Under the pieces are notes generated by a model. That model did no database searches and had not been told where the DNA came from. It worked only from the letters and a program-made list of their open reading frames with translations. The position numbers and the translations under genes were made by a program. From an uncultured Erysipelotrichaceae bacterium (GTDB lineage: Bacteria; Bacillota_I; Bacilli_A; RF39; UBA660), in the NCBI GenBank assembly GCA_902788735.1, contig CADALJ010000001.1:4005-68004 (forward strand): DNA of 64,000 nucleotides. The letters are read 5' to 3'. Of this stretch, positions 17,282 to 63,024 are shown piece after piece. How positions within the stretch are numbered: the first letter of the stretch is position 1; each line of letters opens with the position of its first letter.

Positions 17282-17971
17282 ATGCCAAAAAAGATAGTTG
17301 AAAAAAGAAAAATAAAATTATTACCATTCTTAATATTTTTATTAGTACTTTGCGTACTATCTTTTTCTGTTTATTTTGCCCTTCAAATTAGAGTAAAAAA
17401 CCTAATAGTTATAGGTAATAACTATATACCAGATGATGTGATTTTAGAAAAAGCAAAAGTAATAAATTATCCTAAATTCTTATTAACCACCAATTATAGT
17501 GTTAGAAAAAATTTAGAAAAATATCCATATATTAAAAAAGCTACTCTAATAAAAAAACATCCTCTTACTTTTGAAATAAAAATAGAAGAAGCAAGATCAT
17601 TATTCTATAATATGAATAATAATAGTTACATATTAGATAATGATAAAGAAATCAAAGAGAAAAAATCAGAATATAATTTTAGAGTACCTAGATTATTAAA
17701 TTATGTCCCAGATAAAAAATATGAATCATTTAAAGAAAATATGGCTAAAGTAAATGGTGACGTACTATCTAAAATAAGTGATATAGAGTATCAACCAAAT
17801 GATTATGATAAAGATAGATTTTTACTATATATGGATGATGGTAATATGGTATATCTTACATTAACTAAATTTAAAATGATTAATCACTATAATGAAGTGT
17901 TAAAACAATTAGAAAATCATAAAGGAATACTTTATTTAGATAATGGTAATCACTTTAAAATTATGGAATAA
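17282..17971 (+). CDS. ftsQ: cell division protein FtsQ/DivIB (POTRA domain)
   Basis: Short cytoplasmic N-terminus, one TM, POTRA-like (IRVKNLIVIGNNYI); position between murB and ftsA. ATG at 17282 with GGGAG RBS. Confidence 0.7.
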   Translation: MPKKIVEKRKIKLLPFLIFLLVLCVLSFSVYFALQIRVKNLIVIGNNYIPDDVILEKAKVINYPKFLLTTNYSVRKNLEKYPYIKKATLIKKHPLTFEIKIEEARSLFYNMNNNSYILDNDKEIKEKKSEYNFRVPRLLNYVPDKKYESFKENMAKVNGDVLSKISDIEYQPNDYDKDRFLLYMDDGNMVYLTLTKFKMINHYNEVLKQLENHKGILYLDNGNHFKIME

Positions 17972-36835: not shown

Positions 36836-38602
36836 ATGAGTAAAATAAAAGTAATGGACGAAGTTTTAGCTAATAAGATAGCTGCAGGAGAAGTAGTTGA
36901 AAAAACTATGAATGTAGTAAAAGAATTAGTTGAAAACTCAATAGATGCAGAAAGTACAGAAATAACAGTTAAATTAATAGATTCAGGTGTTAAAGAAATA
37001 GAAGTATCAGATAACGGAATAGGTATGGATAGGGATGATGCAACTCTTGCATTTTCTCGTCATGCTACTTCTAAATTAAAAAGTCTAGATGATTTATTTT
37101 ATATAGAATCATTAGGATTTCGTGGAGAAGCTCTTCCATCAATAGCTAGTGTATCAAATGTTAAACTTAAGACTAGCAATAAAGAGAAAGGCACATTAGT
37201 TACTATTAATGGAGGAAAAGACTTAAAAGTAGAAAATAGTGATCTTCAAACAGGAACAACTATCACAGTCTCTGATTTATTTTATAATACTCCGGTAAGA
37301 TTAAAATATCTAAAGAACTTATATACAGAACTTGCCTATATTGTAGAGTATATGAATAAAATGGCTTTAAGCTATCCAAACATCAAATTTACTTTAATTA
37401 ATAATGATAAAGTATTATTAAAAACTGATGGAAGTGGAGATTTATTAAAAGTAATATATGAAATATATGGAGTAGATATTACTAAGAAAATGATTCCAAT
37501 CGATGGAGAAAATGATGATTACTATATACATGGTTATATTTCATATCCAGAAGTTACTAAGGCTAATAGGAATTCTATTACTACTCTAGTAAATGGAAGA
37601 GTAATTAAAAATAATGAGCTTAATAAGTGTATAGTAGATTGTTATCACACATATATACATAAAGATAGATATCCAGTAATTATATTAAATATCGATGTCG
37701 ATCCAATACTAATAGATATTAATATACATCCAACTAAAATGGATATAAAATTCTCTAAGATGGATACATTAAAAAGCTTAATAGAAAAACTAATAACTGA
37801 AAAATTAGAAAATATTTCTTTAATTCCAGAAGTATCAGTAAGAGATAGTTATTCTATAAGTGAAGTATCACGTCAAATTCATAAACAAGAAGAAAAAGAA
37901 GAAGTAATAGATAAACCTAAATATGAAGAAATAAAATTAGATTTTGAAGTAAAAGAAGAAGAAAAAAAATATAATGAAGAAATAAAAGAAAGTTTACCAT
38001 TTGAAGTAGAACCATCTCCTAGAGTAAAGAAAATGTATCCAATAGGAGTAGTTATGAAAACTTATATAGTTGCAGAAAATGAAGATGGAATGTACTTAAT
38101 AGACCAACATGCTGCAGCAGAGAGAATTAACTTTGAAAAAATAATGAAACAAATGAAAGAAAAACCAATTATTATTGATTTATTAGTACCAATAAGAATA
38201 GAACTAAGAAAAGATGAATTTATTCTAGCTAAAGAAAGATTTTCTTTATTAGAAGAATATGGTTTTTCAATTGATGAATTTGGAGAAAATACCATTATAG
38301 TAAGAAGCCATCCTAATTGGATACCAGAAGAAAAATCTGAAGAAATAATTAGAAAACTAATAGATATAATTATAGATAAAGGTAAATTTGATTTCGAAAA
38401 GTTTATCTGGAGAATAGCAGCTACTACTGCTTGTAGAATGTCAGTAATGGCAGGAGATTATATTTCTAAAGAAGAAATGGAATGGATTCTAGAAAACATT
38501 AGATATTGTGATAATCCATTTACTTGTCCTCATGGAAGACCTTCTATTATTACTTATACTAAGTACGAATTAGAAAAACTATTTAAACGTCAATTAGATT
38601 AG
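36836..38602 (+). CDS. mutL: DNA mismatch repair protein MutL
   Basis: GHKL ATPase motifs (ELVENSIDA, DNGIGM) and a C-terminal endonuclease motif region. Confidence 0.9.
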   Translation: MSKIKVMDEVLANKIAAGEVVEKTMNVVKELVENSIDAESTEITVKLIDSGVKEIEVSDNGIGMDRDDATLAFSRHATSKLKSLDDLFYIESLGFRGEALPSIASVSNVKLKTSNKEKGTLVTINGGKDLKVENSDLQTGTTITVSDLFYNTPVRLKYLKNLYTELAYIVEYMNKMALSYPNIKFTLINNDKVLLKTDGSGDLLKVIYEIYGVDITKKMIPIDGENDDYYIHGYISYPEVTKANRNSITTLVNGRVIKNNELNKCIVDCYHTYIHKDRYPVIILNIDVDPILIDINIHPTKMDIKFSKMDTLKSLIEKLITEKLENISLIPEVSVRDSYSISEVSRQIHKQEEKEEVIDKPKYEEIKLDFEVKEEEKKYNEEIKESLPFEVEPSPRVKKMYPIGVVMKTYIVAENEDGMYLIDQHAAAERINFEKIMKQMKEKPIIIDLLVPIRIELRKDEFILAKERFSLLEEYGFSIDEFGENTIIVRSHPNWIPEEKSEEIIRKLIDIIIDKGKFDFEKFIWRIAATTACRMSVMAGDYISKEEMEWILENIRYCDNPFTCPHGRPSIITYTKYELEKLFKRQLD

Positions 38603-38630
38603 AAGTAGAAATACTTCTTTTCTTATGCTA
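38603..38630 (+). terminator. intrinsic terminator after mutL
   Basis: Hairpin agaagta-gaaa-tacttct followed by T-run. Confidence 0.5.
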
Positions 38631-38651
38631 TAATATGTCCGAGGGGATATT

Positions 38652-39530
38652 ATGGAAAGTATAATTGTAATAGTAGGACCTACTGGAGTAGGTAAAACTA
38701 AAATGAGTATAGAATTAGCTAAAAGACTAGATGCCGAGATTATTAATGGAGACTCTGTAGCTATTTATAAAGATTTGAATATAGGTAGCGCTAAACCAAC
38801 TATTGAAGAGCGAGAAGGTATACCACATCACTTAATAGACATTAAAGAAGTAACAGATGACTATTCAGTATATGATTACCAAATAGATTGCCGTAAAGCT
38901 ATAGATGATATAACTAATAGAGGTAAAAGAGTAATTATAGTAGGTGGTACTGGTCTTTATATAAAAGCAGCTTTATATGATTATAATTTTACTAAAGGTA
39001 CTACAAATAAAGCATATGAAAACTTAACTAACGAAGAGATATTAGATAAGATTAGTAAATATGATTTATATCTATCTAGCACATTAGAAGTAAATAATAG
39101 ACAAAGATTAGTAAGAGTATTAAATAAATTAGAAAATAAAGAAGTATTTACTAATAATAAAGATAAATTATTATATCCTATTAAAGTAATTGGATTAACT
39201 ACTGATAGAGACTATTTATATGAAAGAATAAATAAACGTGTAGATATAATGATTAACAATGGATTATTAGATGAAATTAATAGTCTTAAAGATAAATATA
39301 AAAGTTCTAGAATACTTAATAGTGGAATAGGGTATAAAGAGTTTTATGATTACTTATTTAATTCTAAAGATTTAGATAGTGTTATAGAAAGTATAAAACA
39401 AGACTCTCGTAGATTTGCTAAAAGACAATACACTTTCTTCAATCATCAATTTGATACTAAATGGATAGAAGTAGATTTTAGTAATTTTAATAATACAATA
39501 GAAGAAGTAATGAATTACATAAAAAAATAG
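38652..39530 (+). CDS. miaA: tRNA dimethylallyltransferase
   Basis: P-loop GPTGVGKT and DSVAIYKDLNIGSAKP motifs. Confidence 0.9.
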   Translation: MESIIVIVGPTGVGKTKMSIELAKRLDAEIINGDSVAIYKDLNIGSAKPTIEEREGIPHHLIDIKEVTDDYSVYDYQIDCRKAIDDITNRGKRVIIVGGTGLYIKAALYDYNFTKGTTNKAYENLTNEEILDKISKYDLYLSSTLEVNNRQRLVRVLNKLENKEVFTNNKDKLLYPIKVIGLTTDRDYLYERINKRVDIMINNGLLDEINSLKDKYKSSRILNSGIGYKEFYDYLFNSKDLDSVIESIKQDSRRFAKRQYTFFNHQFDTKWIEVDFSNFNNTIEEVMNYIKK

Positions 39531-47638: not shown

Positions 47639-47715
47639 GTATCCGTAGCTCAGTAGGATAGAGCAGTCGCCTCCTAAGCGACAGGTCATGAGTTCAATTC
47701 TCGTCGGGTACACCA
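47639..47715 (+). tRNA. tRNA-Arg (anticodon CCT)
   Basis: Cloverleaf folded by hand: acceptor GTATCCG/CGGGTAC, D-arm GCTC..GAGC, anticodon loop CU-CCU-AA, T-arm ATGAG-TTCAATT-CTCGT, encoded CCA. Confidence 0.85.
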
Positions 47716-48109: not shown

Positions 48110-48379
48110 ATGATAGAATATGCAAAAGAAGGTAAAAATGTAAATGAGTATATGATTCATGATGATGAATATTATTACAAAAGACTGAGAAAAAATATTA
48201 GATGTTATAGAAAAACAAAGCAATTGACACAACAAGAATTGGCGGACATTGCAGAATTAACAAGAGAATACATTTGCGATATAGAAAATGAAAAGCGTAA
48301 TAAACATCCATCTATTGCGGTAATTGGCAGAATAGCAGATGCACTAGAAGTTGATATAATTATGCTATTTAAAGAATAA
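48110..48379 (+). CDS. XRE-family helix-turn-helix transcriptional regulator (89 aa)
   Basis: HTH QLTQQELADIAELTREYICDIENEKRNKHPSIAVIGRIADAL. GGTGG RBS then ATG at 48110. Confidence 0.65.
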   Translation: MIEYAKEGKNVNEYMIHDDEYYYKRLRKNIRCYRKTKQLTQQELADIAELTREYICDIENEKRNKHPSIAVIGRIADALEVDIIMLFKE

Positions 48380-48719
48380 TTAGGTAGTCTTGTAAAAAGA
48401 TGATGAGAAAAGTGGTGAATAATTAAAAAGTACTATAGCATCATATTTGACTCAATAAAATATGCAAAAAAATTGCATATTTTTTTTATGAAAAAAGCAA
48501 ACGTACATATATAGTTTACTTGCCAAAAAATGTCAAAATTAGTCATAAAAATACGGAAAAAGGAAAAAATACTACCATTCGCGGAAAAAGTGTAGAATTT
48601 TACTACTTATATTATATAATATGTCCCCAAAAAAAATTTATATACATTAAAACGACCAAAATAGCCAAAAAATAGAAAGTATATAAATTAGTGTAGGGGG
48701 AAATGAAAATATACATAAT

Positions 48720-49205
48720 TTGTATATTAATAAAGTTATGAAAACCAGAAATAGAATGATTTTTGAATCAATTAATGAAATAGAAGAAGATCCTGATAAG
48801 TTTAATAGCTATTACACAAAATTATATGAAGTATGTAATGATTTACCATACGACTTTAGATCTAGATTAAGATATTTGCGTGAATGTATGGGATATACAC
48901 GTGAAAAATTAGAAGAAAAATCAAATATTAGTGTTCAAACAATAAAACAAATAGAAATAAATTCAAATAGAGGGTACACGGTAAGTACCATTTTAGCATT
49001 ATGCATTGGTATGAACTTACCTCCAGAACTTAGCTTTGAATTGATGAGGAAAAGTGATTATAACATTGAAACCAGTAGTTCAATATGTAATTGTGTGTAT
49101 TGTTATGTATTAAGAAATATGTATGATCTTAGTATAAATGATGTAAATAATTTTTTAAATAATATTGGTATAGAACCTTTAACAGGTGATAATTTAAGGA
49201 AATAA
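48720..49205 (+). CDS. XRE-like HTH domain protein (161 aa)
   Basis: Central HTH-like MGYTREKLEEKSNISVQTIKQIE..VSTILALCIGMNL. Start uncertain (48720 or 48738). Confidence 0.5.
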   Translation: MYINKVMKTRNRMIFESINEIEEDPDKFNSYYTKLYEVCNDLPYDFRSRLRYLRECMGYTREKLEEKSNISVQTIKQIEINSNRGYTVSTILALCIGMNLPPELSFELMRKSDYNIETSSSICNCVYCYVLRNMYDLSINDVNNFLNNIGIEPLTGDNLRK

Positions 49206-49363
49206 CAGTTGTTCCATTTCTATAATTAAAAAAGGTATCTTTGGCGTACTTTTAGTTAGTAATTAACTATGAGAAATTGATTATAGAAATGGAGGTGAAT
49301 CGATATTATTTAAAAAGTTATTTCTTTATGTACATATTAATAATTAATATAAAAGGAAATTAT

Positions 49364-49675
49364 ATGAATTATATTATTAATTACTCAGCATTAATAACAA
49401 TTATATGTACAATTGCAACATCATTGATTGCTTTTCTATCGTATAAAAATAATAATAAGTCCAAAAATAATCAAGATATTACTGAAAGAGTAAAACGAGA
49501 TACTGAAATATCTACAAAATTAGATATGATGATAACGAGTACATCAGAAGTAAAAGTTGAAATGAAAAGTTTAAATAATAAATTTGATGAGATGAGTGAA
49601 CGAATCGCAAAATGCGAGGAAAGCACTAAGCAAGCTCATGATAGAATTGACAAAATAGAGTTCAGATTAAATTAG
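49364..49675 (+). CDS. small membrane protein with C-terminal coiled coil (lysis-cassette accessory, XhlA-like architecture)
   Basis: AAAGGAA RBS then ATG at 49364; one N-terminal TM then a heptad-rich tail. The ORF-track start at 49277 lacks an RBS. Confidence 0.45.
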   Translation: MNYIINYSALITIICTIATSLIAFLSYKNNNKSKNNQDITERVKRDTEISTKLDMMITSTSEVKVEMKSLNNKFDEMSERIAKCEESTKQAHDRIDKIEFRLN

Positions 49676-49686
49676 AGGTGATGATT

Positions 49687-49899
49687 ATGAAAAAATTCAA
49701 AAAGGGATTAATTAAGTTTTTAAAAAAGCCAAAAGTTGAAAGGGCAATAAAGACTTTTATTGAAGCATTTTCATCATATGTTGCCGTTAAGATTGTAACA
49801 GTTGATGTAACAGATAAAACAGCATTATATGGATTAATTGCCGGAGCTATTGGTAGTGCTATTTCAGTAATTCTTAATGTAAGAACTACGGAGAAGTAA
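49687..49899 (+). CDS. holin-like small membrane protein (70 aa)
   Basis: Amphipathic segment plus a C-terminal TM ALYGLIAGAIGSAISVIL; charged ends; immediately upstream of, and overlapping, the peptidoglycan-hydrolase gene. Confidence 0.45.
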   Translation: MKKFKKGLIKFLKKPKVERAIKTFIEAFSSYVAVKIVTVDVTDKTALYGLIAGAIGSAISVILNVRTTEK

Positions 49900-49900
49900 T

Positions 49901-50842
49901 ATGTTTAAGGGTCAAAAATCAATTAAAGATGGTATAGAAAACTTTCTATGCCCATTTACTGATATGTATATTTCACAAGGTTCAAATGGTGCATATTCAC
50001 ATAAGGGAATATTAGCCCATGATGTTAGAGGACATGTTTCAGGTGTAAGATATCCTTATTTCGCCCCATGTACATGTAAATGTATTAGGACTTACCCTGT
50101 TACAGGACAAGTAATGTGGCAATCAACAAATAAAGTTAGATTTGCTAATGGTAGAATTGACTATGCCACTTTTATGACAGCCCATGATGACACTATGGAT
50201 GCTAAAGTTGGAATGATTGTTCCACAAGGAAATCAATTAGGTAATATGGGAAGAAAAGGTTATTCAAATGTAACTGGTATCCATTGCCACATACAAATAA
50301 GTCAGTCTGCTGATACATCATGGTATAAGAATTCTTATGGTAACTATAAATTTAATAATGAATATGAACCTGAAGATTGTTATTTTGTAGACAATACAAA
50401 TATTATATATGCTTGCAATATTACAAATTGGAAAAAAACAGATAAAATTTCAGTAGACGAAAATATGGAGAAAGAAGTTGTAGATCAAATATTACACGTA
50501 GGTAGTAAAGTAAAATTTGATGGAATATTTAAGGTTGATAGTATAAGACTTCCACTTTCTACAAATCATTTTGGTAATACACAGTTGACCGGTGTAATCC
50601 CAGATGATTATAAAAATGGAAGATGTAGAGATTATCATTGGATTCCTTTAGATGATTGGACTGAAGTTGACCAATATGGAAATTCTCAGGAACAAGATCA
50701 AATTGTCTATAGCGGAGTATCATACGTGTTGAATAAAAATATATACACAGTAATTGGGATTGATATTCCTACCGATTCAGCAAAACTACGAATTAATGGT
50801 CATGATGTTTGGGTTTTTTGTACATATTTATATGAGGTATAA
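49901..50842 (+). CDS. M23-family (lysostaphin/LytM-like) peptidoglycan endopeptidase with C-terminal binding domain; candidate endolysin
   Basis: TAHDD..VGMIVPQGNQLGNMGRKGYSNVTGIHCHIQ aligns to the M23 signature GxxVxxGQxIGxxGxTGxSTGPHLHFE. About 150-aa C-terminal extension. Confidence 0.55.
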   Translation: MFKGQKSIKDGIENFLCPFTDMYISQGSNGAYSHKGILAHDVRGHVSGVRYPYFAPCTCKCIRTYPVTGQVMWQSTNKVRFANGRIDYATFMTAHDDTMDAKVGMIVPQGNQLGNMGRKGYSNVTGIHCHIQISQSADTSWYKNSYGNYKFNNEYEPEDCYFVDNTNIIYACNITNWKKTDKISVDENMEKEVVDQILHVGSKVKFDGIFKVDSIRLPLSTNHFGNTQLTGVIPDDYKNGRCRDYHWIPLDDWTEVDQYGNSQEQDQIVYSGVSYVLNKNIYTVIGIDIPTDSAKLRINGHDVWVFCTYLYEV

Positions 50843-50978
50843 AGAATAAAATAATTAATAAATGTACGTAAGAAATAAATAAAAAATTGCACAGCAATAT
50901 AAATTAGTTTAATATTACTAATTCAACAATTTACCCACAATAAAAATATAAAATAAATAAAGAAAGAAGGAATTAAAA

Positions 50979-51584
50979 ATGTATGATTATATAATTGATG
51001 CTTTTACAAGAGATGGAAATAATACAAATCTTGAAGTAGACAATTTAAATGTAGGATGTATTACATCCAAAAATAATAATTTTGATTTAGATAGTAATGG
51101 TAATTTAACAGTTAATTCAATTACTACTAATAGCATTACAGGGCAGGCACTTGCCAATCTGTTATATCCGATTGGTTCGATTTATATGTCTGTTGATTCA
51201 ACTAGCCCAGCAACATTATTTGGAGGAACATGGCAAAGATTTGCAAATGGACGTGTATTAGTTGGAATAGATGAAAACCAAACTGAGTTTAATACAGTAA
51301 ATAAAACAGGTGGAAGTAAAGACATGCAGAGACATACACATACTCAAAGCAGCTGTACAAATCCTGGCGATCACTCGCACAACACATGGAATTATTTCAC
51401 ATTCCATCATTCAAGTGGTGGTGTAACTACTTCATGCACAGGAGAACCATCAGATGGAAGAGGAAATCCTACTCAAGGAGCTGGAGGACACACTCATACT
51501 ATCACGTTGAATGAAACAGGAACTGGTACAAGCGGAAACTTACAACCATATGTATGTGTATACATTTGGCAAAGAGTAAGTTAG
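50979..51584 (+). CDS. phage tail-collar domain protein (tail fibre-like)
   Basis: LYPIGSIYMSVDSTSPATLFGGTWQR is the hallmark of the phage tail-collar domain. Gly/Thr/His-rich C-terminus. Ends 12 nt before the RHS gene. Confidence 0.65.
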   Translation: MYDYIIDAFTRDGNNTNLEVDNLNVGCITSKNNNFDLDSNGNLTVNSITTNSITGQALANLLYPIGSIYMSVDSTSPATLFGGTWQRFANGRVLVGIDENQTEFNTVNKTGGSKDMQRHTHTQSSCTNPGDHSHNTWNYFTFHHSSGGVTTSCTGEPSDGRGNPTQGAGGHTHTITLNETGTGTSGNLQPYVCVYIWQRVS

Positions 51585-51596
51585 GAGGTTTAAATA

Positions 51597-54500
51597 ATGG
51601 ATCGAATAGAATTAATTGATAAAAGAAAACCTCGTGAAAAACACTTTTTACAAAAAGATGGTACGATTCGTGCTGAAATATTCAATGAAGATGTTCATTA
51701 TCTAAAAGATGGAAAATATGAAGAAATTGATAATACATTAATTGAAAAGAAAGGTTCGATAGTAAATAAAAGTAATGATTATAGAGTCGAATTCAAAGAT
51801 AATTCACATGATTCATTAATGAAAATATCAAAAAATGATTTATTTATTGATTTTAAAATTAAAAATAATAAAGGTATAGAATCAAAAGTAGTAGAAAGAA
51901 AAGTGTCAGAAGAAAAGAAAAATGTTATTTTATCTAAATTAGATGATGATGTTTCAATAGAATATCAAGCATTATCTAATAAAGTAAAAGAAACAATAAT
52001 ATTACAAAGCAACAAATATAGCGAGCTTAGTTTTGAATTAAATACAAATTTAAAACTAAAATCTGAGAATGATGAAATATACGCTATTGATGCTGAAAAT
52101 AGAACTATCTTTAAAATTGAAAAACCATTTATGGTAGATGCAAATGGTGATAAGAATAATAGAATCTATTATTCGCTTGCAGAATATGATGATGCATATA
52201 TATTAAAATTAACATTAGACGATGAATGGCTAATGAATCCAGAAAGAAAATATCCAATATATATAGACCCAACAATATCAAATATAAGTAATAATAATAT
52301 AACACTATATGATACATATATATATCCAGGAGATTCACAAGATGATAGAGATAGTAAACCATATATAAAAGCAGGTACTGAAAGAATAAATGGTCAAGAT
52401 AGAGTAAATAGATCTCTAATCAAATTTGACTTACCAGAAATTGGAACAGGTAGTCATATAGTAAATGCAACACTAATACTTGTACCATATTATGAAGCTT
52501 TTCATGAAGAAGAATCTACATTATCGCGTACAGTAGAAGTAAGAAGAATTACAGAAAGTTGGAATCCATCTACTGCAACATGGTCAACTATGAATGATAA
52601 ATATGATTCAAGAGTTGAAAGTATAACTTTCTTTGAGAGATCTCATATAATAAATAATGTGGTTTATTATGGAACGACTTATTTAGATGTCACAAATTTA
52701 GTAAGAAATTGGTATAGTGGAGTGGCAAACCATGGACTAATGATAAAATCTTGCAATGAAGAATATTATGATGACAATTTTCCAATGTTTTTTTCCACTA
52801 ACAATAATGTCACAGGTGATCCAAAACCAATTATTTCAATTTCTTATGAAAATCAAAATGGTCTAGAAGAGTATTATGATTATAAAAGAATTAGCTGCGT
52901 AGACAGTGATACATTTATCAATACTTATAGCGGCAATATGACATCAGTATTTACAGTTGGAAAAACATTAGGACAGAGATTCCCAGCTAAAGCTACACTC
53001 GTATATAATACTAATGATGCTATTTTAAATAATTCAAGTTCATTTGGAAAAGGATTCAAATTAAACTATGAACAAAAAATAATAGAGGAAAATCAAGATT
53101 TATTATCTTTTATTGATGCTGATGGTACAACCCATTATTTTCATAAAGGAGGAAATGGGCTTAATTCAGATAGAATATTTGATAATACCAAGTATTATGA
53201 TGAAGATGGTTTAAATTTAATAATATCCATAGGACAAAATACATGTACAATGGAAGATTTAGATGGAAATCAAAAGACTTTTGAAAAATATAACAATATA
53301 TATTATTTAAAAAGTATAAAAGATATTAATAATAATAGTGTAACTGTTACATTAGATAATAATCAAAGAATAACAAAAATAAAGGATATTAATAATCAAG
53401 AAATAAACATTACATATAATAATTCAAGTGTTGTATTTAGTTGCACTGCTATGACAGTAACGGCATATAAAACTAACAATCTAATAACATCTATTCAAAC
53501 AATTAATGGTACAACAAATATCACTTATAACAACCTTGATTTAATAGAGATTATTGAAGATCCTAGTGGTACAAAACATAAATATGAGTATTATCAAACA
53601 ATACCGCATAGAATTTCTGAAATAACAATGTATGGTATCAATGATGGAATAGGTGACACAAATACATTTGAATATTATAGCAATAGTACATCAGTTACAA
53701 ATGGACAGGGATTAGTGGAAGTAATAACATTTAATGATAGAGGAAATGCTATTGAAAGAAATTATCAAAATAGTATCAATGATTTATCAGGAGCTTATTC
53801 ATCAACATGCAAATATGGTAATGGAGATAAAACAAATAGATTATTATCTAGCAATATTCCAATAAAGTATACAAAAAACTACATAGGAAATAGTAGTTTT
53901 GAAATGGATACAAACCCATTTATAATAGAAAATGGAATAGTTGCTAGTTTTGATACAAATAGTGCACATTCAGGTAATAGAAGTTTAAAATTAGAAACTA
54001 CATATAATAATAAAAAAGCATCCTCTGGATTTGCGCTAACCGGAAATAAACATTATACATTTAGTGGTTATTTTAAAGGAACAGGAACAGCAAGCATAAC
54101 ACTTTATTATATTCAACATGGAACTCAAGAAATAATAAGTAGTACTCAAGATATTGAACTTTCTAGTGATTTTGAAAGAGAAGATGTAACTTTATATTAT
54201 GGCAATGATGCTAACAGTGATTTAAATGTAATAATTGAATTATCAAACGGAACTTTATATGTCGATGATGTTCAATTAGAAGAAGGTGAGGTGGCAAATT
54301 ATTATAATATAATGGATAATGCGGACTTTAGTAATGGACTATCAGATTGGACATTATATGCGGGTAGTCAAATAGATCCACAAGATCCATATGATTATAT
54401 GAGTGTTGTAACTATAAATTCAAATAATGATACAGCACTTAAAATTGAAATGGATCCAGTAGTGCCGACAGCATTAGTAAAAAAATATGATATTAATGGG

Positions 54501-57500
54501 AAAACTGGTGATGTATATACTATATCATTTTGGTATAAAAATGGTAGCGTAACACCATATATGCCAAATGTAGGTAGTGCAGTAAGTATTTTTTACCAAC
54601 CATATAATAGTGATAATGGTCATTGTATAGTTTCAGAAATTATACCAAATACTGGTGATGAAACATGGCATTATTTTATTCATAAAGAAGTAGCAATTGA
54701 AGATTTCAAATCCATAACTATCAACTTCTCACAAACAGGTACAGCAAATGATTTTTATTTAACTAATATAGCTTTTTATAAAGATGTAACAAGAGGAGAA
54801 TTTGACTATGATAGTAATGGAAATTTAACTAGAATTAGTAATCAATCAAATAATACTAGTCAATTAAGTTATAATACTGATAGTCAGTTGAAAGATATAG
54901 TAAGTCCATCTGGACAAAAGGTAAAATATGAGTATGATAAAAATAAAAAGAGTAGATTAATTAGTTCTATATCAGCTGGCGGTATTGTAACTGAAAGCAA
55001 ATATGACAGTAATGGTAATATATGCAATATTAAAATATCAAATAAGACAATTCAAAATATTGATTCATCTGATTTATATACGATAAGAAATAATGGTACA
55101 GATAAGTATATAAAAGCAGAATTAAATGCGGTTTTATTAGAAACTAATGATTGTAGTAACACAAAATGGAAAATTCAAGAACAAAATAATGGTAAATATA
55201 AAATTATTTATAATGCATGTCCACAATATTCTGTATCTTATTTAAATGAAAATATAATTCTTTCTAATGAAAATATCAATAACCTATTTGAATTAGAACA
55301 AAATGATAATGGTAGTTTTCATATAAAATATATAGAAGAGACAGGTGAAGGTACAGCAATTAGATATTTAAAAGCAAATAATCAATTGATTGAAACAACT
55401 TTATATAGTGGAGAATCTTCAGATATTGAATTTTATATTGAAAAAATTCCAGATCAATTTATTGAAACTGATACAGAGTATACAACTGATGGAAAATATG
55501 AAGAAAAAAATATTAATAGTGATTTAACTGAGGAAGAATATGAATTTAATCCAAATACAGGTTTATTAACTAAATTAATCAATGTAAACGGAATAGAAAC
55601 TACATATTCATATAATTTGATGAATAAGATAAGTGGAATTGCATGTCAAAATAGAACAGTATCCTATAACTACAACACATCTGGATTGTTAAGTTCAGTA
55701 GCTGTTGGAAATAAAAATTATAATTTTGAATATGATGAATTCTTAAATAATACAAAAGTTAAAATAAACAATAACACATTAACCCAAAGTACATATTCAA
55801 ATGGAAAACTGACATCTACCACATATTCAAATGGCTCTAGCATAAACTATTATTATGATACATTAGACAGATTAGAACGTATTCAAAAAGACAATAGTGA
55901 AAACTATTACTTTAAATATAATAACAATGGTAATATTGCAAAAATAATTTCAAATAATGAACAAATAAAATGCTATTATGATGCAAGTAATAGAATCATA
56001 AAGTATAAAAACAATGATTTTAAAATAGATTATGATTATGATATAGATGACAGAAATATTTCAAAAAATTATAAATTAGAAAATCAAAGTCACACTAATG
56101 AATTTGAATTTAATAATGATAATTTAACAAAATTGACTGTAGATAATATAGATTTTAATTATGAATATGATAGTTTAGGCAGAATTACAAATAAAAAAAT
56201 CAATAATAATAATTATATGAATTATGAATATCTTTCAAATGGAAAGAGAACTTCTAACGAAATCGTTAAGATGTATTTAAATGGTGATGAGTATGAATAT
56301 GTTTATGATAAATTAGGAAATATCAATGAAGTTCATAAGAATAATATTCTAATAAATAAGTATTATTATGATGATTTTAGTCAGCTTACTATGAGTGAAG
56401 ATTATGTTGAACATAAGAAATATGAATATACTTATGATACTAACAGTAATTTAATTGAAAAAAAGGTAATTAATACATTAAATAACACTGTAATAGAAGA
56501 TATAATGCTTGGTTATAATAATTCAAGTTGGGAAGATCAGTTATCAACATATAATGGGACAACAATCACTTATGATAGTTTGGGAAATATTACAAGTTAT
56601 GGTAATAATGAATTGTTCACTTGGAACAATGGTAGAGAACTTACTCAATATAGTAATACAAATCAAAATATTACTGCTAATTATGCATATGATATGTCTG
56701 GTATAAGATGTTCAAAAAATATAAATAACATTTTAACAACATATTATACAGAAAATGGTAAAGTAATATATGAAAAAAGAAATAACGATATTATATATTA
56801 TTTATATGATATTCAAGGAATAGCAGGATTAATATATAATGGCAATATATATTACTATGAGAAAAATTTATTGGGAGATATTATAGGTATTTTAAATAGC
56901 CAATATCAAAAAATTGTATCATATCAATATGATGATTGGGGAAAAATTCTTTCAATAAAAGATTCAACTGGACAGGATATTATAAATCCAACTAATATAG
57001 GAATAATAAATCCATTTAGATATAGAGGATACTATTACGATAGTGAAACGGGATTATATTATTTGAATAGTAGATATTATAATCCAGAATGGTGTAGATT
57101 TATTTCCGCAGATGCGTTAATTGCTTCAAATCAAGATTTCCCATCATTTAATTTATATGTATATGCAAGTAATAACCCTATTATGAATACTGATATTTCT
57201 GGATATGGAATACTTAGTTCAATATCAAAAACAGTAAAGAAGGTCGTTAAAAAAGTATCAAAGGCAATAGGGTCTGTTGTAAATTCAGTAGTAAATACGT
57301 TTAAAAAAATAGTAAAAGTAAGTACTACCCAAACACAACACGTAGAAAAATCTTCACAAAATTGGGGTGTAGCAATTTATAGCAAGGGTACTATACAATC
57401 TGCAACAATAGAAACAAATCGCAAAGAAAACAGTATAATAGAAGCAAACCATGAAATTGGTGGTGGTGACTCAATTGGTTTCAATAATCAATTATTTGCG

Positions 57501-57794
57501 ACTTCTATAGCAGTAGATACAACAGGAGTAGATTTTTCTGTAAAAGGAAATACAGGATTTATAGCAAATCAAGAAATTATGTTTGGTATATATGGTGGAG
57601 ATGTATATATCCAACAAAACAGTATGGCAGAGGGTTCAGGTGTTAGTACAGGAACATATAAAAGATTAAGTGTAAATGGAATAGTTGCTGTTATTGTTGT
57701 GTCAGTAGCGACAGTAGTATTATGTAATTTATCAACAACGGCAGGAAAAGGAGTCGCAGCACCAATATTTGCTCCAGCCGTTTCACTTGCATAA
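51597..57794 (+). CDS. RHS/YD-repeat polymorphic toxin (2065 aa) with no N-terminal signal peptide and a C-terminal hydrophobic toxin domain
   Basis: N-terminal DNRLRE-like domain. Many YD repeats (YEYDSLGRI, YYYDTLDRL, YTYDTNSNL). RHS core FRYRGYYYDSETGLYYLNSRYYNPEWCRFISADALI..NLYVYASNNP. Internal CBM-like and ricin-B-like inserts. C-terminal about 195 aa is Lys-rich amphipathic, then Gly-rich, then a hydrophobic helix. Strong AGGAGG RBS. Confidence 0.9.
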   Translation: MDRIELIDKRKPREKHFLQKDGTIRAEIFNEDVHYLKDGKYEEIDNTLIEKKGSIVNKSNDYRVEFKDNSHDSLMKISKNDLFIDFKIKNNKGIESKVVERKVSEEKKNVILSKLDDDVSIEYQALSNKVKETIILQSNKYSELSFELNTNLKLKSENDEIYAIDAENRTIFKIEKPFMVDANGDKNNRIYYSLAEYDDAYILKLTLDDEWLMNPERKYPIYIDPTISNISNNNITLYDTYIYPGDSQDDRDSKPYIKAGTERINGQDRVNRSLIKFDLPEIGTGSHIVNATLILVPYYEAFHEEESTLSRTVEVRRITESWNPSTATWSTMNDKYDSRVESITFFERSHIINNVVYYGTTYLDVTNLVRNWYSGVANHGLMIKSCNEEYYDDNFPMFFSTNNNVTGDPKPIISISYENQNGLEEYYDYKRISCVDSDTFINTYSGNMTSVFTVGKTLGQRFPAKATLVYNTNDAILNNSSSFGKGFKLNYEQKIIEENQDLLSFIDADGTTHYFHKGGNGLNSDRIFDNTKYYDEDGLNLIISIGQNTCTMEDLDGNQKTFEKYNNIYYLKSIKDINNNSVTVTLDNNQRITKIKDINNQEINITYNNSSVVFSCTAMTVTAYKTNNLITSIQTINGTTNITYNNLDLIEIIEDPSGTKHKYEYYQTIPHRISEITMYGINDGIGDTNTFEYYSNSTSVTNGQGLVEVITFNDRGNAIERNYQNSINDLSGAYSSTCKYGNGDKTNRLLSSNIPIKYTKNYIGNSSFEMDTNPFIIENGIVASFDTNSAHSGNRSLKLETTYNNKKASSGFALTGNKHYTFSGYFKGTGTASITLYYIQHGTQEIISSTQDIELSSDFEREDVTLYYGNDANSDLNVIIELSNGTLYVDDVQLEEGEVANYYNIMDNADFSNGLSDWTLYAGSQIDPQDPYDYMSVVTINSNNDTALKIEMDPVVPTALVKKYDINGKTGDVYTISFWYKNGSVTPYMPNVGSAVSIFYQPYNSDNGHCIVSEIIPNTGDETWHYFIHKEVAIEDFKSITINFSQTGTANDFYLTNIAFYKDVTRGEFDYDSNGNLTRISNQSNNTSQLSYNTDSQLKDIVSPSGQKVKYEYDKNKKSRLISSISAGGIVTESKYDSNGNICNIKISNKTIQNIDSSDLYTIRNNGTDKYIKAELNAVLLETNDCSNTKWKIQEQNNGKYKIIYNACPQYSVSYLNENIILSNENINNLFELEQNDNGSFHIKYIEETGEGTAIRYLKANNQLIETTLYSGESSDIEFYIEKIPDQFIETDTEYTTDGKYEEKNINSDLTEEEYEFNPNTGLLTKLINVNGIETTYSYNLMNKISGIACQNRTVSYNYNTSGLLSSVAVGNKNYNFEYDEFLNNTKVKINNNTLTQSTYSNGKLTSTTYSNGSSINYYYDTLDRLERIQKDNSENYYFKYNNNGNIAKIISNNEQIKCYYDASNRIIKYKNNDFKIDYDYDIDDRNISKNYKLENQSHTNEFEFNNDNLTKLTVDNIDFNYEYDSLGRITNKKINNNNYMNYEYLSNGKRTSNEIVKMYLNGDEYEYVYDKLGNINEVHKNNILINKYYYDDFSQLTMSEDYVEHKKYEYTYDTNSNLIEKKVINTLNNTVIEDIMLGYNNSSWEDQLSTYNGTTITYDSLGNITSYGNNELFTWNNGRELTQYSNTNQNITANYAYDMSGIRCSKNINNILTTYYTENGKVIYEKRNNDIIYYLYDIQGIAGLIYNGNIYYYEKNLLGDIIGILNSQYQKIVSYQYDDWGKILSIKDSTGQDIINPTNIGIINPFRYRGYYYDSETGLYYLNSRYYNPEWCRFISADALIASNQDFPSFNLYVYASNNPIMNTDISGYGILSSISKTVKKVVKKVSKAIGSVVNSVVNTFKKIVKVSTTQTQHVEKSSQNWGVAIYSKGTIQSATIETNRKENSIIEANHEIGGGDSIGFNNQLFATSIAVDTTGVDFSVKGNTGFIANQEIMFGIYGGDVYIQQNSMAEGSGVSTGTYKRLSVNGIVAVIVVSVATVVLCNLSTTAGKGVAAPIFAPAVSLA

Positions 57795-57803
57795 CAAAAA
57801 AAT

Positions 57804-57831
57804 AAAAAGCACAAAATATTGTGCTTTTTAA
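57804..57831 (+). terminator. intrinsic terminator after the RHS gene
   Basis: Hairpin aaagcacaa-aatat-tgtgcttttt. Confidence 0.6.
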
Positions 57832-57863
57832 TATATATATGATAAAATTAATTTGGTGATAGT

Positions 57864-58547
57864 ATGAAAATTAAAAAAAATATGAATATACTATTTTGGA
57901 TAACATTAGTTTCATTTGTAGGATGGTTTGTATCTTGGGGATATTTAACTAAAGATCTTCCGGTTGAATTAGCATTTCTTCCGCTAGAATGGGCTAATTG
58001 GATATGGATGATAATCCCGATATATACTATATATTATTCATATAAGAATAGAAAAGTAGGTAAAGCTATTAGAAATATAATAGCTGCAGTTATATTGATT
58101 TTGGTATTAATTCCAGGATTAATTCCAGATAATAAAGTAAAATACAATAATATACATAAATATGAAGAAATACTTAATATAAATTTTCCAAAAACTGGAA
58201 TTTTAATAAATGAAATAGGACTAGATATAGATGACAATAAAGACGATATTAGAATAGAATTAGCATATTATAAAAAAAGTATTGACATTAGCAAATTAGA
58301 AAACCAAATAAAAAAGTCAAAACAATGGACTAAAAAAGAAAATGTAGGCAAAAAATTATATAAAATACTTCCAGATATAGTTAGATTTGATGATGAACAA
58401 TATATATTAGTATACAATAATGATACTAAAGAATATAACACACCTTTAGAGGAAAATAAAATATATGACATATATACCGCTATATATTATAAAAAATATA
58501 GAGCAATATATATATATCATTACCAATATAATAATAAAGAAGAATAA
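57864..58547 (+). CDS. multi-pass membrane protein, candidate cognate immunity protein of the RHS C-terminal toxin
   Basis: 3 N-terminal TM segments plus a soluble Lys/Tyr-rich domain, located immediately 3' of the toxin. Confidence 0.45.
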   Translation: MKIKKNMNILFWITLVSFVGWFVSWGYLTKDLPVELAFLPLEWANWIWMIIPIYTIYYSYKNRKVGKAIRNIIAAVILILVLIPGLIPDNKVKYNNIHKYEEILNINFPKTGILINEIGLDIDDNKDDIRIELAYYKKSIDISKLENQIKKSKQWTKKENVGKKLYKILPDIVRFDDEQYILVYNNDTKEYNTPLEENKIYDIYTAIYYKKYRAIYIYHYQYNNKEE

Positions 58548-59432: not shown

Positions 59433-60002
59433 ATGAAAAAAATATTAGGAATAATTAGTATGGCACTAGTTTTAGTATTAGTAACTGGTTGTAGTTTAAT
59501 ACCAGGACAAAAAACAAATGCTAATGGAAATGTATTAGAAAAACCAGCTAAAGGAAATTGTAATGTATTTGAATGTATTAAAAAGATAAATCTTACAGAT
59601 GATTTAGATAAAGTAACAAAAGTTATGGGTTTTGAAGGTAATTTATTAAATGAAGGGTCTACATATAAAACATATAAATGGGTAATTAATCATGATAAAA
59701 ATGAAGCAGTACAAGTAGCATTTAATGCTAATAGTACAGTAATAAGTATTACATTTAGTGATGAAGATATTAAAAATCCTAAAGTAGATTTTTCAAAATA
59801 TGAAGAAATTAAAACTGCATTAAACAATAAAGAAAAATTAACATATAATGATATTAAAACTAAATTTAAAGCTGATGGAACGTTAATTGAAAAATCTACA
59901 TTATCAACTAGATATAGATGGGTTAATGAAAATGGTAGATATATTAATGCTACATTCAGTAATTCTACTGGTGCTTGTACAATGATAATGGGAAGAATTT
60001 AA
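59433..60002 (+). CDS. lipoprotein (paralog A)
   Basis: Lipobox LVTGC. Shares GNCNVFECIKKI..VMGFEG..YKW with the next gene. Confidence 0.6.
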   Translation: MKKILGIISMALVLVLVTGCSLIPGQKTNANGNVLEKPAKGNCNVFECIKKINLTDDLDKVTKVMGFEGNLLNEGSTYKTYKWVINHDKNEAVQVAFNANSTVISITFSDEDIKNPKVDFSKYEEIKTALNNKEKLTYNDIKTKFKADGTLIEKSTLSTRYRWVNENGRYINATFSNSTGACTMIMGRI

Positions 60003-60051: not shown

Positions 60052-60582
60052 GTGAAGTATATGAAAAAAGTAGTAAGTTTATTTTTATTTTTATCAGTTA
60101 TATTATTAATAACTGGATGTAGTACAAAGAAAGAAGAAAAAGAAGAAAAATCAAAAGGAAAATGTAAAATAGAAGAATGTATTAAATTGATAGGGCTAAA
60201 TGATAATTTAGAAAAAGTAAATGAAATAGTAGGTTTTGAAGGAACTAAAGAAGATAATACTTATTCTTGGAAATTAACTAGTAAACAAAAACTAGAGATA
60301 GTGTTTAGTGATACTAATAGTATTAAGATTAAAGTATTAGATGAAGAAATAAAGAATAATAAAACAAACTTTTCTAAATACTCTAAATTAGAAAAAGATT
60401 TAAAAGATGGAAAAGAAATAAAAATAGAGGATCTAAATAAAGCATTTAAATCAAATGGAGTATTAATAGAAAAAACATCTACTGAAGAAATATATAAATG
60501 GGTAGATAAAGAAGATTCTTACCTAGAAGCAACTATAAATGCTACTAATGGTAAATGTTATAAAATAAATGGACTAATATAA
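60052..60582 (+). CDS. lipoprotein (paralog B)
   Basis: Lipobox LITGC. KCKIEECIKLI..IVGFEG..YKW is paralogous to the previous gene. Confidence 0.6.
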   Translation: MKYMKKVVSLFLFLSVILLITGCSTKKEEKEEKSKGKCKIEECIKLIGLNDNLEKVNEIVGFEGTKEDNTYSWKLTSKQKLEIVFSDTNSIKIKVLDEEIKNNKTNFSKYSKLEKDLKDGKEIKIEDLNKAFKSNGVLIEKTSTEEIYKWVDKEDSYLEATINATNGKCYKINGLI

Positions 60583-60645
60583 AAAATAAGATATTGATTA
60601 ATATCTTATTTTTATTTATAATAACTAATTATGGGAGGTTCAGCA

Positions 60646-62399
60646 TGAAAAATAATCAAGTCGCAACAGAAGTTATTAAAATACGTTGGTTAGATGCATA
60701 TATATTTGTATGCCATAATGTAGTAACAGGTAATTATGATGAAGAACAAGGAATATTTACTGATATTTATGGCGAAGAATATTGTAATATGATGTCTGGT
60801 GATGCACTTACCACAGATGCTAAAGTAGTCTATAATATAATGGACATGGATAAATTAAAAAAATTAGATGTTAATAAAAATAAAAAAGTAAATGATATTA
60901 TTAGTGAGTATTATAAAGAAGTAGCAACAAAAGCATATGTTATAGGATATACAGATGAATATACTCCATATGTATATGCAATTAAATTAGATTTTTTAAA
61001 AGAAGAAGCAAATAGAATAGAATCAAATGGTTCAAAAAATGTAATTAATCCAAAATCTACAGAAAAATTAGAACAATTAATATTAGATACAATAGATGGT
61101 AAATATACAAAAGAACAATTAAAAGAAATGATAGAAGTTTTAGAAACTACCAAAGATACCATTGATAATACAATTGGTACAATGGAAACTAAAATAAGTG
61201 CTATAGATAGCAATATGAGTTTTAAAGATTATTTAAATGAACAAATAGAAAAAGAAAAAAATATAACAAAACCAGCAACATCTACAAACACTATTACTGA
61301 TATTGCATTAAAGGTAGCAAATGATCGTAAAAAAGAAGAAGAAAAGAAAAAAAATCCTCTTAAAGATCAAACTATCAAAAGAAAAGAATTAAAATATGAT
61401 ATAGAAGAAATATATAATAAAGTAAAAGAAACATTAATTGCTCAAGATGAACCATTAAAAAAAGTAATTACAGAAATAGTAAGAAAAGACATGGATCCTA
61501 GATTAAAAAGACAAGGTATTTTTATTACAGGTGCAACAGGAACAGGTAAAACAGAAATGATGCGTCAACTTGCTATGCAATTAAATAAAAAACTTATTAT
61601 AGTCGATTCATCTCAATTAACTATTGAAGGATATGTAGGAAAAGATATAGAAAAAGAATTATATGATTTATATGAAGCTTGTAATAAAAATATAGAAAAA
61701 ACAGAAGAAGCGATAGTTTTCTTTGATGAAATAGATAAAAAAGGAACAGAAAAACATGATGATCCAAACGGAAGAGGAGTACTAAACTTATTACTTAAGT
61801 TCATTGAAGGAACAACATATGATGCAGCTCCTAATAATAAATCAACAACTATAGTTCCGATAAATACATCTAATATGACAGTAATTTTTGGAGGGGCATT
61901 TACTGATGTATATAATCATTCTATGACAAGCAATATAGGTTTTTCTACAGAACCACAATCTAATAAGAAATATCATGTACCAGAACTAGAAGATTTTGAA
62001 AAATATGGAATGATGCCAAGAGAATTTTTAGGAAGAGTATTACATGTACCATTAAATCCTTTAAGTTTAAATGATTTAAAAAGAATACTATTAGAATCAA
62101 AAGAATCAGCAATAAAAATTCATGAAAAATTATTTAGAGAGTTAGGAGTACATATAATCTTTACTGATCAATTTATAAATAAAGTAGCAGAAAAAGCATA
62201 TTTAAGTAAAACAGGAGCAAGAGGATTAAATGATACGGTAAATGTAGCGACAAGTGAAGCATATGCTAAAGTATATATGGATTGTTATAAAAACTTAAAT
62301 AGTTATAAGGAAGTATTATTAACAGATAAAACAGTAGAGGATAGTTCTAACTATCAATTAGTAAATAGAAGAATAATTAGAAATAAAAATAAGAAGTAA
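60646..62399 (+). CDS. ClpX-like AAA+ ATPase paralog with novel about-300-aa N-terminal domain (no zinc-binding domain) and a retained IGF-type loop
   Basis: Walker A GATGTGKTE, Walker B VFFDEIDK, sensor/arginine finger KTGARGLN; NIGFSTEP aligns to the ClpX IGF loop GIGFGATV. GGGAGG RBS then ATG at 60646. Confidence 0.7.
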
Positions 62400-62947: not shown

Positions 62948-63024
62948 GGCGCTGTAGCTCAGTTGGCTAGAGCAATCGGTTCATACCCGATAGGTCGTGA
63001 GTTCGAATCTCTCCGGCGCTACCA
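62948..63024 (+). tRNA. tRNA with CAT anticodon (elongator Met or Ile2/lysidine)
   Basis: D-arm GCTCAGTTGGCTAGAGC, anticodon stem-loop ATCGG-TTCATAC-CCGAT, T-loop TTCGAAT, encoded CCA. The acceptor stem has two G.U pairs. Confidence 0.75.

Follow-up and report, generated by a model that had tools for sequence, protein, structure and literature searches.

How does an RHS toxin of cage size that lacks an export signal leave a Gram-positive cell, and how does it find its target? This question is raised by an island at 48.1–58.6 kb of the DNA stretch analyzed here (the window, 64 000 nt of contig CADALJ010000001.1 from an uncultured Erysipelotrichaceae bacterium), in which a gene for a 2065-aa RHS protein follows a set of lysis genes and a gene for a phage-type fibre tip. 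The locus offers an answer to both parts of the question, namely release by lysis combined with a swappable phage receptor-binding tip, and members of its family are found in at least 61 species from gut and rumen. In the reading that we favor, and to which we assign about an even chance, the RHS protein is a polymorphic WapA-like bacteriocin that is released by lysis in the manner of a type 10 secretion system (T10SS) and targeted by the borrowed tip. An earlier sequence-only reading of this DNA had listed two XRE regulators, a small membrane/coiled-coil protein, a holin-like protein, an M23 endopeptidase, a tail-collar protein, the RHS toxin and an immunity-like protein with three transmembrane (TM) segments; all eight genes are present in that order on the + strand.

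Related loci were collected in a scan of one genome per species, which returned 80 loci, mostly from metagenome-assembled genomes (MAGs) of uncultured gut and rumen ‘Bacilli’, Erysipelotrichaceae and ‘Tenericutes’. In 61 of these 80 species-level loci a full-length fibre protein, composed of a first segment of ~60 residues (N60) and the tip, is followed at once by an RHS gene of ~2000 aa; the other 19 comprise tip-only matches in tail fibres of 600–960 aa, small tip-only open reading frames (ORFs), single or in tandem, without RHS gene, and contig ends. The RHS gene of the window (51597–57794, + strand) encodes the domains that had been read from it, i.e. RHS_repeat, YD_repeat_2x, DUF6531, DNRLRE and the Rhs-associated core. 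Residues 1–230 (51597–52286) make up an N-terminal beta-sandwich, residues 239–415 (52311–52841) a DNRLRE or CBM96-type carbohydrate-binding module (CBM), and residues 441–1869 (52917–57203) DUF6531 (E = 1.8e-5), the YD-repeat shell and the core, with matches to PF05593 (RHS_repeat, 2.8e-19) and TIGR01643 (2.5e-17), a precomputed Pfam match to TEN_YD-shell and a match of residues 1778–1869 to TIGR03696 (6.3e-20). Both N-terminal regions, which fold as a beta-sandwich plus CBM96, have homologous counterparts in the 61 loci. For residues 700–1300 we found no CBM or ricin domain in Pfam, and neither LysM or another wall-binding domain nor TcA or a TcB-type SpvB/beta-propeller N-terminus was matched in Pfam or NCBIfam.

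The claim that the RHS protein has no Sec, lipoprotein, LXG or WXG feature at its N-terminus was borne out well beyond the window. Two in-frame stops bar an upstream start codon, so that no signal peptide is revealed by correcting the start, and the protein as well as all 61 homologues begin with the conserved beta-rich domain. A hydrophobic signal, a lipobox and a helical LXG/WXG-type domain are absent in all 61 RHS homologues examined. Maximum Kyte–Doolittle hydropathy was at most 1.2 in the first 45 aa of 73/73 RHS N-termini listed (the species loci together with L005–L013), and the start motif M-x-x-I-E-L-x-K-R-K-x-R-E-K-H-F-L is found in all homologues but two (a near variant in L070 and a different start in L089).

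The gene directly upstream (50979–51584, + strand) had been labelled tail-collar, a name that has to be replaced: Pfam Collar is not matched, and the gene encodes N60 followed by a variable Gp10_C fibre tip with HxH motifs. The match to Gp10_C (PF21939, E = 9e-29) reaches 101.6 bits against a cut-off of 27 and covers profile positions 2–139 of 139. As the AlphaFold2 monomer model of the fibre protein (pLDDT 59) was unfit for a fold search, we compared the family profile with PDB sequences instead, and it matched the C-terminal domain of T4 gp10 (PDB 2FKK) at 4e-13; a fibre or receptor-binding protein, as known from tailocins, is thus present. About 2,250 database relatives of the fibre protein exist, and in the family alignment the N60 part is more conserved than the Gp10_C part. 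The 12-nt gap between fibre and RHS genes reported earlier is real, and in the window the TAG stop of the fibre gene overlaps the GGAGG Shine–Dalgarno site of the RHS gene. Across species the gap has a median of 12 nt and is at most 40 nt in 49 of 59 cases, the larger gaps holding a gene of ~130 aa and occurring with a longer version of the fibre protein. The pairing of fibre and RHS genes is obligate, and the two are coupled in translation. We also considered a read-through or fusion of the two genes, which share a frame in the window, and rejected it: they are separated by two stops, and in L008 and L011 they lie in different frames.

The two parts of the fibre protein have different histories. 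Over 52 pairs, tip identity and RHS identity are uncorrelated (Spearman 0.04–0.07) and N60 tracks the RHS gene (Spearman 0.39–0.56), so that the tip has the behaviour of a receptor-binding module that recombines, and N60 that of a part belonging with the toxin. An exhaustive HMMER search with N60 alone gave 145 clusters at 50% identity, which split into a short class (motif at about residues 4–55) and a long class (motif at ~160–230). A few large proteins repeat the motif 10–13 times (13 times in P0160 with 1943 aa, 10 times in P0274 with 899 aa), and because of this repetition N60 looks like a unit of fibrous beta-structure.

Several variants of the fibre gene were observed besides. About one third of the family has the long form, in which an extension of 170–280 aa (MNL..Q.VSG.NE..L.DSLNA.LL.LK...) precedes N60 (e.g. 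L062:9464–10603 and L050:9149–10600), and a coiled-coil gene of ~130 aa (cluster c16; L047:11534–11938) often lies between long-form fibre gene and RHS gene; neither the extension nor c16 has a significant Pfam or PHROG match (c16 matches only phrog_4178, E = 0.006). Two tandem long-form genes precede one RHS gene in L047 (9443–11595) and L071 (9352–11378). The L047 copies have nearly identical N60 segments and different tips, N60 being recognizable only in the first copy of L071, and these tandem genes look like alternative receptor-binding proteins for one toxin. Tandem arrays of three to four small tip-only Gp10_C ORFs (~110–180 aa), with neither N60 nor a nearby RHS gene (L064:9408–11317, L065:9408–11332, L072:2–2907 and L091:240–1655), may be tip cassettes for recombination.

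Upstream of the pair lies the lysis cassette. The putative endolysin (49901–50842, + strand) consists of an M23/LytM-type endopeptidase and a C-terminal domain. Its description as M23 endopeptidase stands in part: it scores 19 bits against Pfam Peptidase_M23, under the 28.7-bit cut-off, and its residues 16–181 match the M23/LytM domain of phi29 gp13 (PDB 3CSQ) at E = 1e-20 and the protein matches phrog_9066 ‘endolysin’ at 2e-15. The C-terminus matches residues 256–367 of the 373-aa ScrM model (2.5e-6), from which we regard this domain as probably wall-binding. Neither a signal peptide nor a TM segment was found in the enzyme, which gives the locus the cytoplasmic peptidoglycan hydrolase typical of type 10 secretion. 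Directly before it, the putative holin (49687–49899, + strand, 70 aa) has hydrophobic segments at residues 21–39 (weak) and 45–63 (strong), the expected position in the cassette and a weak match to phrog_443 ‘holin’ (E = 3.9e-4); the earlier assignment is thus a weak one, Pfam holin families giving no match. This holin-like gene type directly precedes the hydrolase gene in 14 loci, in one of which (L016) the hydrolase is a GH25 muramidase. The small membrane/coiled-coil protein (49364–49675, + strand, 103 aa from its likely start) is XhlA-like, with one TM segment at residues 8–26, a coiled coil and a match to phrog_1863 (7e-19); 5 of the 11 members of its cluster weakly match Pfam XhlA (best E = 4e-4). 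The trio of XhlA-like, putative holin and hydrolase genes resembles the xhlA-xhlB-xlyA lysis cassette of PBSX.

The hydrolase might itself be the weapon, in that the M23/SH3b enzyme would open the peptidoglycan of the target from outside for the RHS cage, which is compatible with lytic release. Its catalytic domain is similar to phi29 gp13, an enzyme of the phage tail that penetrates the wall, its C-terminus resembles that of the fratricin ScrM, and the passage of WapA-size proteins across peptidoglycan is unexplained (PMC12704120). Against this, the enzyme has no signal peptide, the preceding XhlA-like and holin-like genes give the classic layout of lysis from within, and the enzymes that take its place in other loci belong to common endolysin types; we consider a weapon role improbable as the full account.

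Two XRE regulators, as had been read from the sequence, open the island. The first (48110–48379, + strand, 89 aa from ATG) matches HTH_19 (1.4e-8), HTH_3 and PHROG repressor families and is also called as an 89-aa gene in identical contigs. The second (48720–49205, + strand; HTH_3 E = 2e-5, phrog_4031 E = 3e-20) belongs to cluster C10, which in 9 loci precedes XhlA-like, holin and hydrolase genes, and is the fixed first gene of one type of lysis cassette (type A below) in other genomes. In about 15 loci a regulatory set lies beside the pair (e.g. L019:6739–9585, L024, L063, L048, L061 and L011:19179–20268), consisting of a divergent XRE gene, an XRE gene with an apparent membrane anchor (by eye), a secreted protein of ~250 aa and Sigma70_r4. 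A sigma-like gene directly upstream of the toxin operon recalls control of the TcdR/UviA type.

To judge linkage across genomes, we counted loci with at least 4 kb of upstream and at least 3 kb of downstream sequence (n = 33). A same-strand hydrolase gene was observed within 4 kb of the pair in 17 of these 33 loci, and 16 of the 17 have a holin or XhlA-like gene too. The density of hydrolase genes is ~5.6-fold higher within 4 kb of the pair than farther out (0.068 versus 0.012 per kb, binomial p = 6e-4), in a count whose hydrolase seeds came from pair-adjacent genes. The cross-genome co-occurrence of lysis genes with signal-less RHS genes that had been proposed as a check is therefore a conserved linkage, in which non-homologous hydrolases replace one another. 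In type A, the order of the window (XRE, XhlA-like, holin, M23, fibre, RHS, immunity) is found in at least 10 species. Type B consists of regulators, fibre, RHS, one further gene, two holin-like genes and M23; type C of fibre, RHS, immunity, a Phage_holin_5-like gene and then a CW_7 protein or an Amidase_2 enzyme; and type D of a sigma-like gene, long fibre, RHS, one further gene, holin-like genes and M23+LysM. Matches to Phage_holin_5 in other loci are also weak. The cassette thus lies upstream of the pair in type A and downstream in types B–D. At least five unrelated hydrolase types occur (gp13-like M23, GH25 as in L016, Amidase_2, CW_7 protein, M23+LysM and the PHROG endolysin of L037). Because the cassette keeps its function and position class while unrelated enzymes swap in, these gene orders point to selection acting on the lysis function itself.

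The remaining loci have as neighbours housekeeping genes, immunity-like genes (DUF2691, RDD, DUF5412) and XRE or Sigma70_r4 regulators. In Pfam and PHROG censuses of 300 neighbouring genes, of which the 25 most frequent families were listed, no T7SS (type VII secretion system), capsid, portal or terminase genes stood among these families, nor did holin families among those of the remaining loci. The lysis-positive set includes a few weak PHROG matches to ‘tape measure’ and ‘minor head protein’, with three members each. Tail modules had been suspected in L030 and L058 from tail-like gene sizes, and PHROG assigned these genes to ABC-transporter, FabG, HD-phosphohydrolase and RelA-type families, which are housekeeping functions, so that the suspicion was dropped.

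The links of the module to phages bear on where it came from and on two further explanations. In two IMG/VR contigs (L097 and L098) a siphophage tail block, made up of a major tail protein, two other tail proteins and a fibre of 650 aa with Gp10_C at its end, is followed by genes for proteins of 117 and 92 aa and for an M23-like endolysin; then come the genes for a short fibre protein, RHS and immunity, which gives the type A order of the window joined to a phage. In L098 the short protein and the 650-aa tail fibre of the phage itself share 60% identity in their tips, whereas the region of the short protein before the tip, N60 included, has no significant match in that fibre. Ordinary phages, such as T12 and Blautia phage NatCom_2932, have the Gp10_C tip as their final structural domain, directly followed by the holin and endolysin genes. 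From this position and from the order in L097/L098 we conclude that the right end of a prophage late operon is the most likely origin of the module. The same two facts, together with the roughly half of the loci that have no lysis genes nearby, would suit a decayed prophage end, in which lysis cassette and fibre tip are leftovers of the late operon, the RHS–immunity pair was a moron in it and the lysis genes have no dedicated export role, the toxin leaving through lysis by a resident phage or by an unknown route. We judge this unlikely: 61 species retain the full-length pair intact and without structural genes beside it, the cassette persists before or after the pair as one enzyme gives way to another, which decay would not do, and N60 is specific to RHS-linked proteins. 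None of the top 80 viral Gp10_C matches holds a complete N60, most of them beginning after residue 23 and four at residues 9–15. Nor was an RHS gene recognizable beside these 80 matches, L104 having a DNRLRE-like fragment just downstream of the tip.

The second explanation is that N60 docks the fibre tip on the baseplate of a phage or tailocin encoded elsewhere, with the RHS protein as a toxin associated with the tail tip or fibre. Gp10_C is a baseplate and fibre domain, and the long-form fibre protein has its extra N-terminal domain of 170–280 aa. In Bacillus phage Carmen17, moreover, gp38 (L094:8977–12150) is a YD-repeat virion protein whose gene takes the Dit position, behind that of the tape measure, and which has a weak match to the RHS N-terminus (E = 5e-4; PMC9128512) and one to phrog_37549 at 1e-9; given this position, RHS-like proteins can be structural tail parts in some phages. 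On the other hand, no tail genes were found in the 61 loci over the readable stretch, which reaches from ~10 kb before the pair to 4 kb behind it, the RHS gene of L098 follows the lysis genes and so lies outside the structural block, N60 is not in that phage's own fibre, and an RHS cage of ~230 kDa has no known place on a siphophage tail. Particle-borne delivery therefore seems to us a poor prospect. Release with a tailocin-like particle had been one of the two original hypotheses, and it does not fit the finding that sheath, tube, tape-measure and baseplate genes are lacking in the annotated window and the 61 loci; in its place, the fibre tip would act as an adaptor without a tail particle.

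The settings of the module are diverse: a tRNA-linked island, conjugative elements, other chromosomal sites, places beside serine recombinases, and the prophage end. Directly upstream of the module, 7 loci carry VirB4, VirD4, TrbL and PrgI genes, and ABC transporter genes (cluster c14) occur in 7 loci, which might speak for export by a conjugative type IV secretion system or another dedicated transporter. Neither is found in the annotated window or in most loci, the module looks like cargo of such elements, and a folded RHS cage is, from general knowledge, too large for such channels; we regard this route as very improbable. In seven loci (L059, L069, L028, L037, L038, L045 and L047) the low-GC, Bacilli-type module was found in MAGs labelled Bacteroides helcogenes or Muribaculaceae, which are probably binning or labelling errors and not true hosts.

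At its other end the RHS gene shows the traits of polymorphic toxins, namely YD shell, core, variable C-terminus, adjacent immunity gene and orphan cassettes. Residues 1870–2065 (57204–57794, + strand) are an orphan C-terminal toxin domain of 196 aa with an amphipathic N-terminus and a strongly hydrophobic helix at residues 2024–2042, for which Pfam, PDB and database searches gave no homologue beyond matches (34%) in L005 and L007, whereas the shell is 30–70% identical among relatives. Orphan RHS fragments occur in L029, L035, L036, L041 and L086, and the genes downstream of RHS vary among loci (DUF2691, RDD, DUF5412 and others). The terminator placed after the RHS gene corresponds to a hairpin (GCACAA/TTGTGC) flanked by A- and T-runs at 57803–57830, between toxin and immunity genes, and is probably an intrinsic terminator or an attenuator. 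The candidate immunity protein (57864–58547, + strand, 227 aa) has two to three TM segments by hydropathy, so that the earlier count of three is at the upper end, and its gene has its own −10-like sequence. It has no family match in Pfam or NCBIfam; homologues follow the RHS gene in L005 (54%), L011, L018 and L052. Our guess that the C-terminal domain may act on membranes comes from its hydrophobic helix and from the TM segments of the protein encoded next to it.

Taken together, our findings suggest the following course of events for a lysis-released, tip-targeted toxin. A WapA-like polymorphic RHS toxin with a membrane immunity protein would have lost its Sec signal and acquired two phage-derived partners. 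XRE control would limit expression of the operon to some cells, in which the fibre-tip protein, made from the same transcript and probably a trimer like T4 gp10, would serve as a freely swapped tip that binds the RHS protein, the complex being assembled in the cytoplasm. The holin-triggered endolysin would then lyse a fraction of the producers and free the folded toxin complex of ~230 kDa without a translocon. Outside, the tip would direct the complex to cells with a fitting receptor on their surface, binding to carbohydrates would be contributed by the CBM96 and beta-sandwich domains at the RHS N-terminus, and the C-terminal domain may attack the membrane. As the immunity gene follows the hairpin, it is probably expressed separately, which would protect kin. 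The released endolysin may also help to breach the target wall, as an add-on or as a rival mechanism. We infer fibre–RHS binding, targeting, lysis-dependent release and membrane action of the toxin from the genes. Of the two original hypotheses, release by holin and endolysin is thus the one that we favor, conserved lysis linkage and hydrolase exchange being as it predicts; it had been termed non-lytic, which is not implied here, the best-studied analogue being lytic (PMC10847048).

Several points weigh against this reading. For the proposed fibre–RHS binding, a mirror-tree analysis of N60 against RHS residues 1–230, with the rest of RHS controlled, gave a partial correlation of only 0.15, i.e. 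general co-inheritance and no support for a specific contact; the AlphaFold2 model of the fibre monomer, as given above, is poor. Lysis genes are not seen in about half of the loci whose flanks are long enough (~3.8 kb downstream of RHS is visible); release there must use other means or a cassette elsewhere in the genome. The near-versus-far comparison of hydrolase density is biased by the choice of pair-adjacent genes as seeds. The holin of the window is assigned on a weak match, the toxin domain has no homologues, so that its activity is a guess from hydropathy, and all data come from uncultured MAGs.

A bolder version, which we offer tentatively and at rather less than even odds, sees these modules of gut Bacilli as a widespread class of ‘tail-less tailocins’: the soluble RHS cage would dock a trimeric tip through the 60-aa adaptor, the tips would be exchanged with fibres of resident phages and hence be directed to the cells that these phages infect, and the domesticated lysis cassette would kill the producer and release the complex. 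If true, Gram-positive bacteria would have an antibacterial analogue of the Tc toxins and, besides Sec/WapA and the T7SS, a third delivery route for Rhs toxins. If the main reading given before is correct, phage receptor-binding modules can be reused without a tail, and tip, cage and toxin could form a scaffold for engineered narrow-spectrum antibacterials.

The island lies in a genome with ~26% G+C. Both flanking tRNA genes described earlier are present, tRNA-Arg(CCT) at 47639–47715 (+ strand, ARAGORN), after which the island directly begins, and tRNA-Met at 62948–63024 beyond its 3′ side. The upstream flank is housekeeping (ZnuA, YidD, RNase III, RNase J), and farther upstream lie the dcw cluster with PASTA-domain penicillin-binding proteins, UvrC, MutL and SpoIIP, from which the host can be taken as a walled member of the Bacillota. 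We annotated the flanks from ~21.4 kb to the tRNA-Arg gene at 47.7 kb, where a few genes have no Pfam match, and at 58.7–62.9 kb, and found them to be housekeeping, with no phage structural genes among them; together with the linkage in 17 of 33 loci, this makes the lysis genes a prophage-external cassette tied to a signal-less cargo. The earlier statement that structural phage genes are absent and an intact prophage unlikely is supported for these flanks and needs a qualification, since relatives of the module do end a real prophage (L097/L098). A search for att-like direct repeats around the island found none, and no integrase was noticed among the island ORFs, three of which have no Pfam match, in an inspection that included no systematic recombinase-family scan; the copy in the window is therefore not a recognizable integrated element. 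In megablast the island had no match to phage genomes, and identical copies of the fibre protein with the same surrounding gene order occur in metagenome assemblies only. Two paralogous lipoprotein genes (59433–60002 and 60052–60582, 73% identical over 102 nt of DNA) lie downstream, followed by a gene for a 601-aa AAA+ protein (60594–62399; AAA_2, ClpB_D2-small) between island and tRNA-Met. A closely related contig (L103) carries a 138-aa Bro-N gene (17385–17801) between mutL and miaA that is not in the window (~38602–38652).

Full-text searches of the literature found no account of a Gp10_C–RHS pair or of Gram-positive Rhs toxins linked to a lysis cassette, and a 2012 survey of the trafficking modes of polymorphic toxins lists no such route. 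Comparison with known systems shows which parts are shared. The fibre proteins of phages (T4 gp10, Streptococcus phage T12 gp55 and a Blautia phage tail protein) have the same C-terminal domain, and there too the fibre gene stands directly before lysis genes, but they are 600–700 aa long, without N60 and without an adjoining RHS gene. Tailocins (PBSX, monocin, diffocin, R and F pyocins) use phage receptor-binding tips, are released by XhlA, holin and endolysin, and kill close relatives. Tips for targeting and an XhlA/holin/endolysin cassette for release, with a putative holin in the island, would be common to both, whereas the island has no tube, sheath, tape-measure or baseplate gene and its killer would be an enzymatic or membrane-acting RHS toxin and not the tail. 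Because no tail genes were found in the annotated window or in the 61 loci, the system is not a tailocin, and neither is it a T7SS toxin or a Tc complex.

The pathogenicity locus (PaLoc) of C. difficile, with the TcdR sigma factor, the TcdE holin and the endolysin remnant TcdL, and the likewise holin-linked BCN5/UviAB locus of C. perfringens share with the island a toxin without signal whose gene neighbours are a holin, in the island a putative one, and a small regulator of the sigma or HTH type. Some loci related to the island carry a Sigma70_r4 protein directly upstream of the pair. The toxin class differs, and the family described here has a complete endolysin that can be exchanged, together with a fibre-tip partner; holin-linked clostridial toxin loci are discussed in PMC10847048.

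WapA proteins are the closest structural relatives. B. subtilis WapA reportedly has the same layout of N-terminal domain, DNRLRE, YD shell, core, toxin and immunity gene as the S. suis WapA type. S. suis WapA shares with the protein of the window an N-terminal unknown domain, DNRLRE, YD shell, Rhs core, polymorphic toxin and downstream immunity gene, the layout standing behind a Sec signal in WapA relatives (PMC12704120). WapA has this Sec signal and LysM or wall-anchoring domains, whereas the RHS family of the island has neither and always has a fibre-tip gene upstream.

The closest functional analogue, by analogy of gene content, is found in Yersinia, where Tc toxins leave the cell through T10SS-dependent lysis. 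There, holin and endolysin lyse part of the population and so set free RHS-cocoon Tc toxins that have no signals, and holin/endolysin/spanin cassettes are embedded in toxin operons (PMC10847048). YenLC of Yersinia entomophaga and the T10SS of Yersinia and Salmonella Tc operons (PMC10847048, PMC10847046) share with the island a huge signal-less RHS-shell toxin beside a prophage-external holin–endolysin cassette (its holin putative in the island) with its own regulator, and the common release logic would be the lysis of some producers, as judged here from the genes. In contrast to these systems, the host of the island is Gram-positive, so that no spanin is needed, and a single WapA-like antibacterial toxin with an immunity gene stands in place of TcB/TcC and a TcA injector, its partner being a phage fibre tip. 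If the favored reading is correct, T10SS-like lytic release would extend from the insecticidal Tc toxins of Gram-negative bacteria to interbacterial warfare in the gut.

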